Of a DNA stretch of 64,000 nt, positions 5,916 through 7,241 are shown piece by piece. The position numbers were made by a program, and so were the translations under genes. Below the pieces are notes generated by a model. The model saw only the letters and a list, made by a program, of their open reading frames with translations, was not told the origin of the DNA and searched no databases. Each line of letters opens with the position of its first letter. The first letter of the stretch is position 1. The stretch comes from Schmidtea nova (Eukaryota), in the NCBI GenBank assembly GCA_044892505.1, contig CM097882.1:379936001-380000000 (forward strand), in the 5' to 3' direction.

Positions 5916-7241
5916 TCATGGGTTTGATGAACCGGAAACCACACCAAGGTATTCAGATTTTTGGTGTGGTTGCCGATTCATCAATTTTATTTTTGTTCCC
6001 TGGCTGATTAATTTACATAAATTTACAAAAAAATATGAAGGTACTTTAGTTTTGTCGGATAACAGGGAAAGTAGGATGCCGAGTCGAATCAAAGCTCTAT
6101 CGAAACCATCGGGTAATCTCCCAAGGAGGATCTCATAAGATTGAATAACCACGTAAAGACGATACACACATGGATTTGATAGTACAGTACATACGCTAAC
6201 TACATTCACTTTCGGATCTTGATAGGACATCAACTGACAATAAAATCGTAATTTTCTTAAGATTAATAAGTTCATCATATAAGAACCTTCAAAAATGCAT
6301 ATTGTACAGACAATGAATACAAACAATCCGAAAATAATGTCGATGTAATAATGTTGGACGATCATTGTCAAAGAACTATAGAGAGTAGCATTCAACATTA
6401 AAGCCATACCGGTGAACGGCATTTGGCCTTCCGACTTAAAACATCTACTAGAAGAATCACTTTTAAAAGGTTCGAGCAATTCCCGGGCACTTAAACTCAA
6501 TCTGCCATAACCGTTCACTGAAACCGGATAACGGGGGCCTTTAAAGTCACTCAAGCACATTTTTGGAGTCAAAATAGGCAAGTTATCCACCAAGAACTCG
6601 ATCCTTATTTCCCACGGGAGTTGATTAAATATCAATTTTAAACCGAGAAATATATTCTGTACACATATTTTGATCTTTATAAATTTCTCTCTCTCGGTAA
6701 CAAATTCAATGTTATCACTAAGATTGACATAAAAGTAGAGCACAATAACAACTTTGGCATAGCATTGTTTATTAAAAATATTTAGTTTTAAAGTTTTAGA
6801 TGGTTTCATAAATCCCTTCATTTCTAAGGCGACTATTTCTGGGATTTCAGGCAGAATAATCACTGGCACGTTAGCGATGTAAATCGGCTGATAGCGCTTA
6901 TCATGCGATTCAACTAATCTGCTGATTCCATGTTTATCATTGATGCGGAAATATCCCGACATTGATTCCTTGTACTCCGTAGTGATGTATCCATAGGAAT
7001 TGATAGGCACTTCCAAACATTTACCGTTAGTTGAAACTTTCAATGGTCTGACATCTAGAAAGAATTTGTAATAAAAGACGTTTATTTTCTCCTTCATATT
7101 GACAAATTCAACATTATACGTTGCCGTAGCATTAACAGATTCAATATTCCTGGCGATGTCTGTCAGTCTAATATCTGCTGGCAACAAGTTGTTTGCAAAG
7201 ATACTGTGGATGAATTCCAAAATATAAATTAATTTTATCAT
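5916..7241 (-). CDS. LTR-encoded 441-aa putative membrane glycoprotein (3' LTR copy; stop codon supplied by the flank)
   Basis: Stop-free 440 codons inside the LTR. Hydrophobic N-terminus MIKLIYILEFIHSIFA; sequons N37, N173, N284; hydrophobic segment YYIDIIFGLFVFIVCTICIF (298-317) followed by RKLR. The TGA lies outside the LTR at 5916..5918. Confidence 0.65.
   Translation of the reverse strand: MIKLIYILEFIHSIFANNLLPADIRLTDIARNIESVNATATYNVEFVNMKEKINVFYYKFFLDVRPLKVSTNGKCLEVPINSYGYITTEYKESMSGYFRINDKHGISRLVESHDKRYQPIYIANVPVIILPEIPEIVALEMKGFMKPSKTLKLNIFNKQCYAKVVIVLYFYVNLSDNIEFVTEREKFIKIKICVQNIFLGLKLIFNQLPWEIRIEFLVDNLPILTPKMCLSDFKGPRYPVSVNGYGRLSLSARELLEPFKSDSSSRCFKSEGQMPFTGMALMLNATLYSSLTMIVQHYYIDIIFGLFVFIVCTICIFEGSYMMNLLILRKLRFYCQLMSYQDPKVNVVSVCTVLSNPCVYRLYVVIQSYEILLGRLPDGFDRALIRLGILLSLLSDKTKVPSYFFVNLCKLISQGTKIKLMNRQPHQKSEYLGVVSGSSNP

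Follow-up and report, generated by a model that had tools for sequence, protein, structure and literature searches.

Why should the long terminal repeat (LTR) of a retrotransposon hold an open reading frame of 439 codons with no stop codon of its own, and does the encoded protein matter to the element, to its host or to neither? The question is raised by an element on the minus strand of a 64,000-nt stretch of the Schmidtea nova genome (contig CM097882.1, positions 379,936,001 to 380,000,000; hereafter, the window), the features of which are collected in Table 1. Direct LTRs, a target-site duplication, a primer-binding site and a polypurine tract are all present, as for a Ty3/gypsy LTR retrotransposon, and the order of the pol domains (PR-RT-RNase H-IN) is that of gypsy, albeit with a weak protease match (Pfam E 0.24, aa 40–83); RT, RNase H and integrase were located by Pfam at aa 238–393, 460–588 and 663–828, respectively. 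The two LTRs are 100% identical in the pairwise comparison within the window. The region upstream of pol is taken as a putative Gag, with which its position, a dN/dS of 0.23 and a PF23055 match just below the cut-off (E 4e-6, 27.5 bits against a cut-off of 28) are in line; a homologue search with this region yielded 6,174 candidates, none of which was retained. The termini, fixed by the target-site duplications, are TG...AA and differ from the usual, although non-universal, TG...CA of Ty3/gypsy. The LTRs end in AA across the whole family (5923 and 12525 in the window); the terminal bases make up the 3' arm of the coding hairpin considered below. The gag and pol frames differ and overlap by 16 nt (11114–11129), with GGAAAAC, a possible -1 frameshift site, just upstream of the gag stop.

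Table 1. Features of the element in the window (positions of the window; LTR nt, position counted along the LTR from its 5' end)
Feature	Position	Strand	Remarks
Right target-site duplication	14145..14149		ATGGG
Whole LTR retrotransposon	14144 to 5923	-	8.2 kb
5' LTR	12525..14144	-	1,620 nt
Cargo-leader-Gag fusion ORF	11114..13843	-	909 aa; Gag core from aa 582 (12100)
Terminal hairpin of the likely U5	12525..12586 (3' LTR copy 5923-5984)	-	in-frame ATG (M-N-R-Q, 12583)
Primer-binding site	12512..12524	-	TGGTGTCAGAAG; after the 5' LTR; in-frame read-through into Gag
pol frame	7632..11129	-	1,165 codons; PR (weak), RT, RNase H, integrase
Polypurine tract	7543..7556	-	immediately before the 3' LTR
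3' LTR	5923..7542	-	1,620 nt, termini TG...AA
Conserved GC-rich motif	7309..7321 (5' LTR copy 13911-13923)	-	GCGGTTAACCCGC; LTR nt 222-234; conserved among relatives
AATAAA and putative poly(A) site	7276..7292	-	LTR nt 251-256 and ~nt 267; upstream of the ATG
Cargo part 1: end of 5' UTR, start codon, N-terminal ~260 aa	6452..7254 (5' LTR copy 13054-13856)	-	donor match
3' copy of the LTR ORF	5916..7241	-	441 aa; tail N-P-stop in the flank, TGA 5916-5918
Cargo part 2: juxtamembrane and transmembrane segment	6273..6460 (5' LTR copy 12875-13062)	-	donor match
Remnants of older cargo common to sister subfamilies	5993..6272	-	285-nt and 57-nt in-frame deletions relative to longer copies
AATAAA cited by the first-pass annotation	5986..5991	-	one of 4 in the LTR; AATAAA in 11/34 relatives, mostly AATATA
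Left target-site duplication	5918..5922		ATGGG on the + strand; identical 5-mer at 14145-14149

The frame starts at LTR nt 302 (7241 in the 3' LTR, 13843 in the 5' LTR) and occupies 1,319 nt of the LTR, i.e., 439 codons plus AA, the final codon needing one base from outside. Translation of both LTR copies confirmed what the first-pass annotation had read here: the 5' copy passes as N-W-C-Q through the primer-binding site into Gag, whereas the 3' copy ends in host DNA, where the left target-site duplication completes codon 440 with one base and then provides the whole of codon 441 as well as the T of the TGA. The Gag frame begins inside the LTR; the antisense frames of the LTR contain no ORF of more than 100 codons. 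From this architecture the same annotation had surmised that every insertion and every solo LTR would make a standalone membrane protein with a site-specific tail, or a fusion to the host frame downstream, that a Gag-free product could thereby arise from the 3' LTR, and that a variable surface-protein family could be seeded in this way.

The coding potential assumed in this proposal is real. The thirty best genomic matches to the LTR are all open, 14 of them being followed by the primer-binding site and giving 909 aa, and the other 16 acquiring flank-specific tails. A wider sample, biased to young copies, comprised 122 distinct LTRs (those of the 30 best matches, of 20 stretches spanning whole elements and of the majority of the first 100 matches to a motif of the ORF); 42 of these (5', middle or incomplete) were set aside. 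When the remaining 80 complete 3' or flank/flank LTRs were translated into their flanks, as had been proposed, 60 were open to the LTR end (30/38 3' LTRs and 30/42 flank/flank LTRs), with tails of 1–200 aa. The median tail of 23.5 aa is not significantly longer than that of other frames in the flanks (12.5; p=0.26). Some tails enter other long frames (open frames of 781 and 825 codons), and 32 solo LTRs in the sample have target-site duplications. Across the genome, one motif of the ORF has 259 exact matches and the LTR end has 809. Tandem elements with a common middle LTR, serving as both 3' and 5' LTR, were encountered at G000:C1:176880808-176895631, C1:2.997-3.011 Mb and C2:87.126-87.140 Mb.

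The origin of the frame was approached with a search pattern in which the ORF sequence was kept and the next base of the element excluded; it occurred at three places, one of them outside any element. This place harbors two tandem intronless ADAM-like genes (G000:C1:19618319-19623151), the second of which (19620935-19623151) is the donor. Cargo part 1 (LTR nt 289–1091) is 88.9% identical to G000:C1:19620979-19621780, this value rising to 96–97% in less-diverged copies, and part 2 (LTR nt 1083–1270) is 93.6% identical to G000:C1:19622682-19622869; overall, less-diverged copies of the ADAM type are 96–99% identical to the donor. The donor has Pfam M12B matches and its best PDB match is ADAM10 (E 2e-17). 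An in-frame deletion of ~900 nt between the two parts removed the catalytic, disintegrin and Cys-rich regions, so that the HExxH region and the disintegrin domain are found in the host genes and are absent from the cargo, which retains no Pfam match at all. By comparison with its donor, the LTR ORF is a host ADAM10-like fragment taken up by the element, with the catalytic middle deleted. The transmembrane segment is genuine and was inherited from the donor. Since the donor is whole and has a paralog, the direction of transfer was from the host to the element; since it is itself intronless, the ADAM cargo is uninformative on intron loss. The 5', internal and 3' junctions of the cargo each display 9–11 nt of microhomology. 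The donor lacks the third zinc-ligand histidine, which its tandem paralog retains. Database searches with the ORF of the window gave 5,937 candidates, none at E<=0.001, and no usable match in Pfam, a 5.8-billion protein set or Atlas; the lone match of a profile of four cargo variants against 1.84 billion representatives, a repeat protein over 36 aa, was rejected.

The ADAM piece is one of several occupants of the same slot, since sister subfamilies with 95–98% identical Gag hold different cargos there. Forty further elements, chosen among the lower-ranking of 144 matches to Gag, differ in the slot sequence. Among the first 30 of the 809 LTR ends by position, about nine cargo types were distinguished, the ADAM type, which includes the youngest copies, being the commonest (14/30); all 30 carry more than 1,190 nt beyond the conserved LTR head. 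In PSME4-type elements (at least 40 copies), the cargo begins ~35 nt upstream of the host ATG, matches PSME4 in the PDB (E 8.5e-18) and consists of six blocks of host exon sequence at 93–100% identity, with one block at 77%, spanning small introns; the host introns are missing from it, i.e., the captured sequence was spliced. For further cargos, the matches are to TMEM131 domains, DUF5586, ankyrin repeats and ubiquitin; the cargos of the sister subfamilies are unrelated and in part cytosolic. One more, carried by a subfamily of at least 40 copies and devoid of database matches, we take to resemble the membrane region of adenylate cyclase. Donors were located for 2 of about 9–11 cargo types; the search with the DUF5586 family gave another element copy rather than a donor. 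More cargo types occur at loci L237, L238, L254 and L257, with no donor located and, for L237 and L257, no match in a Pfam scan. At L112:1207-2037, the adenylate-cyclase-like cargo has a ubiquitin-like piece joined to it, and the usual LTR head is missing.

All cargo types have in common the LTR head through the GC-rich motif and diverge 30–60 nt past it; the folding of this motif was not significant (z -1.4). Between the conserved head and a conserved last 70–130 nt of the LTR lie a host 5' UTR, a start codon and 0.8–1 kb of coding sequence, and in intact copies of five cargo types the first ATG past the head is in the Gag frame. The cargo types also have nested 3'-end pieces in common, and a Gag tree built from 32 rows places the ADAM types in a single clade of weak support (84/81), within an older lineage with B-type cargo. 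Taken together, the nested 3' sharing and the Gag tree make up a pattern that points to serial replacement from the 5' side.

The place of the cargo in the RNA depends on where the transcript is polyadenylated. The first-pass annotation had pointed to the AATAAA at 5986–5991, which is not conserved: the hexamer is present there in only 11/34 relatives, whereas the AATAAA before the ATG is present in 28/31 relatives in which the GC-rich motif was found. Moreover, a search after the GC-rich motif revealed A-runs of ~10–25 nt, all joined at the same position (LTR nt ~267), which lies ten bases past the AATAAA at nt 251. They sit in cargo-free elements at three insertion sites within 24 Mb, in LTRs composed of nt 1–269, an A-rich run and nt 1550–1620, with Gag starting as M-N-R-Q. 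On the simplest reading, strong-stop DNA would have jumped early onto the poly(A) tail, the A-run marking the 3' end of the RNA; it is also possible that the run expanded after a plain deletion, and the three insertions may have one common origin. Two further short-LTR junction types are devoid of an A-run. In one element (G000:C1:507958000-507967500), the two cargo-free LTRs differ in the A-rich joint (393 vs 367 nt). The poly(A) site of the genomic RNA is thus likely to lie near LTR nt 267, before the ATG, in which case the RNA likely stops short of the ORF in the 3' LTR. The ORF would then likely belong to U5, so that the RNA would contain it a single time and reverse transcription would place it in both LTRs. 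Reads of four sequencing runs extend over intronic and upstream sequence of PSME4 and look like DNA; since the spliced joints of PSME4 in them carry element junction sequence, these runs are uninformative on expression.

The far end of the likely U5 is folded into a hairpin of -35 kcal/mol (z -5.7; none of 200 shuffles as stable), and the M-N-R-Q ATG within it is the first Gag ATG of the cargo-free copies. Cargo-free LTRs are rare, with 8 matches against 809 LTR ends, a rough ratio obtained with different exact patterns, and this rarity suggests that cargo might be advantageous. Nevertheless, cargo-free LTRs arose more than once, and in some cargo-free copies both gag and pol are open; hence, cargo is not strictly required.

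What selection acts on was inferred from variants in 78 insertions (two duplicates being removed from 80), those present in at least two insertions being called shared and those in one, private. Among 187 shared ORF variants there are no stops where 7.1 are expected, while 235 private variants include 8 against 9.0 expected (shared vs private, Fisher p=0.010). In the ORF, 4/4 shared indels keep the frame, vs 3/17 in the LTR head; private ORF indels are out of frame in 12/18 and in frame in 6/18. The open frame of the LTR ORF is, therefore, beyond chance, and because shared variants lack stops and private stops occur at the neutral rate, the frame is protected during transposition, and copies already inserted in the genome no longer enjoy this protection. 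The amino acids seem to be another matter. The dN/dS of shared variants is 0.96 for those in three or more insertions and 1.6 for those in two; the cargo of the window compared with the donor gives 0.92 over 317 codons, with no stops against 3.9 expected. Between subfamilies, the LTR ORF yields 0.88–0.90 in the three most diverged pairs and values above 1 in closer ones. In each third of the ORF the ratio is ~1, and the changes are distributed evenly over codon positions. By comparison, the donor and its host paralog give 0.5, and pol gives 0.13–0.31 against the three most diverged copies. The cargo is, by its substitution pattern, a neutral mosaic with unconstrained amino acids.

The leader, 161 codons from M-N-R-Q to the Gag core, shows a similar absence of stops in 50 elements (0/89 shared variants, 3.6 expected; the common indel is 15 nt long). 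The Gag core in the same 50 elements is under purifying selection, yet contains two shared stops; together with a 5-nt leader deletion common to two copies, this indicates that broken copies can be multiplied. Broken frames are common in certain subfamilies: only 4/20 PSME4-type LTRs are open, some breaks recurring at an identical spot, and 14/25 adenylate-cyclase-like copies are frameshifted at one T-run, while only 2/22 copies of this subfamily with a located end are open. The T-run shift is scattered over lineages of this subfamily and is possibly inherited.

Considering all of the above, we judge it probable that the ORF is a captured host ADAM10-like piece fronting the Gag frame, likely within U5, and that the likely sole reason for its staying open is to let ribosomes that start at the captured AUG reach Gag. 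Reverse transcriptase would switch to a co-packaged host mRNA while copying R-U5, a new capture would replace the 5' part of the previous cargo, and only captures with an open in-frame path to Gag would continue transposing; the 3' and solo copies of the ORF would be by-products of U5 duplication, left to neutral decay. The cargo protein is then probably a disposable N-terminal extension. A bolder version, tentative and in our estimate somewhat less than evenly balanced, is that the family outsourced the translation start of Gag, its own AUG being buried in the U5 hairpin, to a relay of captured host 5' ends, each founding an expanding subfamily and together leaving hundreds of promoter-plus-open-frame cassettes scattered over the genome. 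It is also conceivable, as an idea, that captures run to the host cap and need no 5' homology: the PSME4 capture starts beside a TCATTT motif, which agrees with this, but the 5' junction of the ADAM cargo has microhomology, which does not.

The main rival of the preferred reading assumes that the open frame guards the genomic RNA from nonsense-mediated decay, with Gag translated from an internal start and the cargo paying its way as RNA, e.g., as a host-like 5' end or by diluting or camouflaging the target of piRNA silencing. It predicts the same stop statistics and accounts equally for a dN/dS of ~1 without stops; the scarcity of cargo-free LTRs despite their repeated origin agrees with it, and capture as counter-silencing has been reported for Drosophila telomeric elements (PMC13534243). 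We consider it unlikely, since the cargos are pieces of ordinary genes (ADAM, PSME4, TMEM131) rather than of silencing factors, the first ATG past the LTR head stands in the Gag frame in five cargo types, and no evidence of splicing or of an internal start was seen. Still less probable is a role of the ADAM part as a type I membrane anchor holding Gag at the ER or the cell surface and evolving fast by diversifying selection. That the deletion took the middle and spared the start and the transmembrane segment, and that the ADAM type outnumbers the others and has the youngest copies among its members, would be in line with such a role; however, a dN/dS of ~1 in every third of the ORF and the even spread of changes over codon positions are at odds with it, and soluble-cargo subfamilies such as PSME4 have also reached at least 40 copies. 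The surface-protein proposal of the first-pass annotation fares no better and is, in our view, highly improbable as well. The openness of most 3' and solo LTRs with their distinct tails, the 32 solo LTRs with target-site duplications, the membrane protease origin of both the start and the transmembrane segment and the junction of some tails with long open frames speak for it. At the same time, neither a second, Gag-free product nor a surface family is supported, in view of private stops at the neutral rate, the predominance of out-of-frame private indels, tail lengths at chance, the near-neutral dN/dS against the donor, the deletion of the catalytic part of ADAM and the replacement of the cargo by unrelated, partly cytosolic proteins in sister subfamilies. 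What stands of the proposal is the coding potential of intact LTRs.

If the preferred reading holds, the U5 slot would represent a capture route that leaves gag and pol intact, with host pieces amplified to tens or hundreds of copies datable by their LTRs, a record of the host mRNAs that entered particles and of their order, and a clean natural case of selection for an open frame without selection on amino acids. In practical terms, genome annotation would mistake such cassettes for expansions of ADAM, PSME4 or orphan membrane genes. They could also readily give rise to antisense small RNAs directed at the donor genes, and the solo LTRs could be raw material for new genes, although no sign of host use was found.

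Other features of the window include a 160-aa ORF with a C-terminal RING finger (398–880, minus strand; PF13920, E 1e-13), another LTR-like element, broken, which has gag/pol-like pieces and 100-nt direct repeats that are 98% identical (55928–59851), and a MITE-like sequence with 73-nt inverted repeats at 97% (61063–61424). Two minus-strand ORFs at 18573–21097 we take to be pieces resembling hAT transposase, and the minus-strand integrase-/RNase H-like ORF fragments at 26569–27818 and 61985–63598 presumably belong to other elements.

Capture of host sequence by LTR elements is already known; what was not found in print is serial capture of host mRNA inside U5, in frame with Gag, with intact gag and pol and with the cargo giving the first AUG, in a literature search whose coverage mostly excluded subscription journals and repeat-database entries. 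A Gag start codon inside the LTR is familiar from Ty1 of yeast, a Ty1/copia element in which a few codons lie there. The transcription start of Ty1 is at +238 in the LTR (bioRxiv 10.1101/176248). As in Ty1, the Gag frame starting in the LTR means that solo LTRs carry a stop-less frame; unlike the present element, Ty1 is not known to carry host cargo.

The closest parallels for the capture itself are the LTR-mediated retrocopies, in which partial host mRNAs are joined to LTR elements by microsimilarity (median 6 bp), with multi-gene chimeras and further rounds of transposition (Tan et al. 2016, PMC5131818). The PSME4 cargo resembles them in being intron-less, and the ADAM cargo in the 9–11 nt of similarity at its junctions. 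In all 15 Drosophila cases, the captured sequence took the place of part of the internal ORFs, and the loci behave as non-autonomous elements (PMC5131818). By contrast, the cargo described here lies inside the LTR of elements with intact gag and pol under purifying selection, is in frame with Gag, supplies the first ATG and is serially replaced. Repeated capture, with one host fragment replacing another, has been described for TART and other Drosophila telomeric elements; in TART-A the cargo is duplicated at both ends, and capture lineages have a higher copy number (PMC13534243). These are, however, non-LTR elements with 140–235 bp pieces, mostly of piRNA-pathway genes, which the accessible portion of the report does not describe as part of the Gag frame. 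Template-switch chimeras bringing foreign sequence into the LTR have been reviewed for BARE-2 and the Veju TRIM (PMC13317346). As far as the available accounts go, these and Cassandra, with its 5S-bearing LTRs, contain DNA of other elements or 5S rDNA, whereas here host mRNA starts are fused to Gag. Among planarian giant gypsy elements, Burro and GYPSM1 have host-like domains, which in Burro (>30 kb) are situated in a polyprotein with an N-terminal Gag (PMC6431247). Both Burro and the present element are gypsy-like with host-like domains, the latter being far shorter and having the cargo in the LTR, upstream of Gag.

Finally, open reading frames present in both LTRs are represented by sag of MMTV and nef of HIV, which lie in U3, have their own stop and are functional and expressed from the 3' LTR. 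The ORF considered here is likewise present in both LTRs, but it is likely situated in U5, lacks a stop, evolves neutrally (dN/dS ~1) and lies past the putative poly(A) site.
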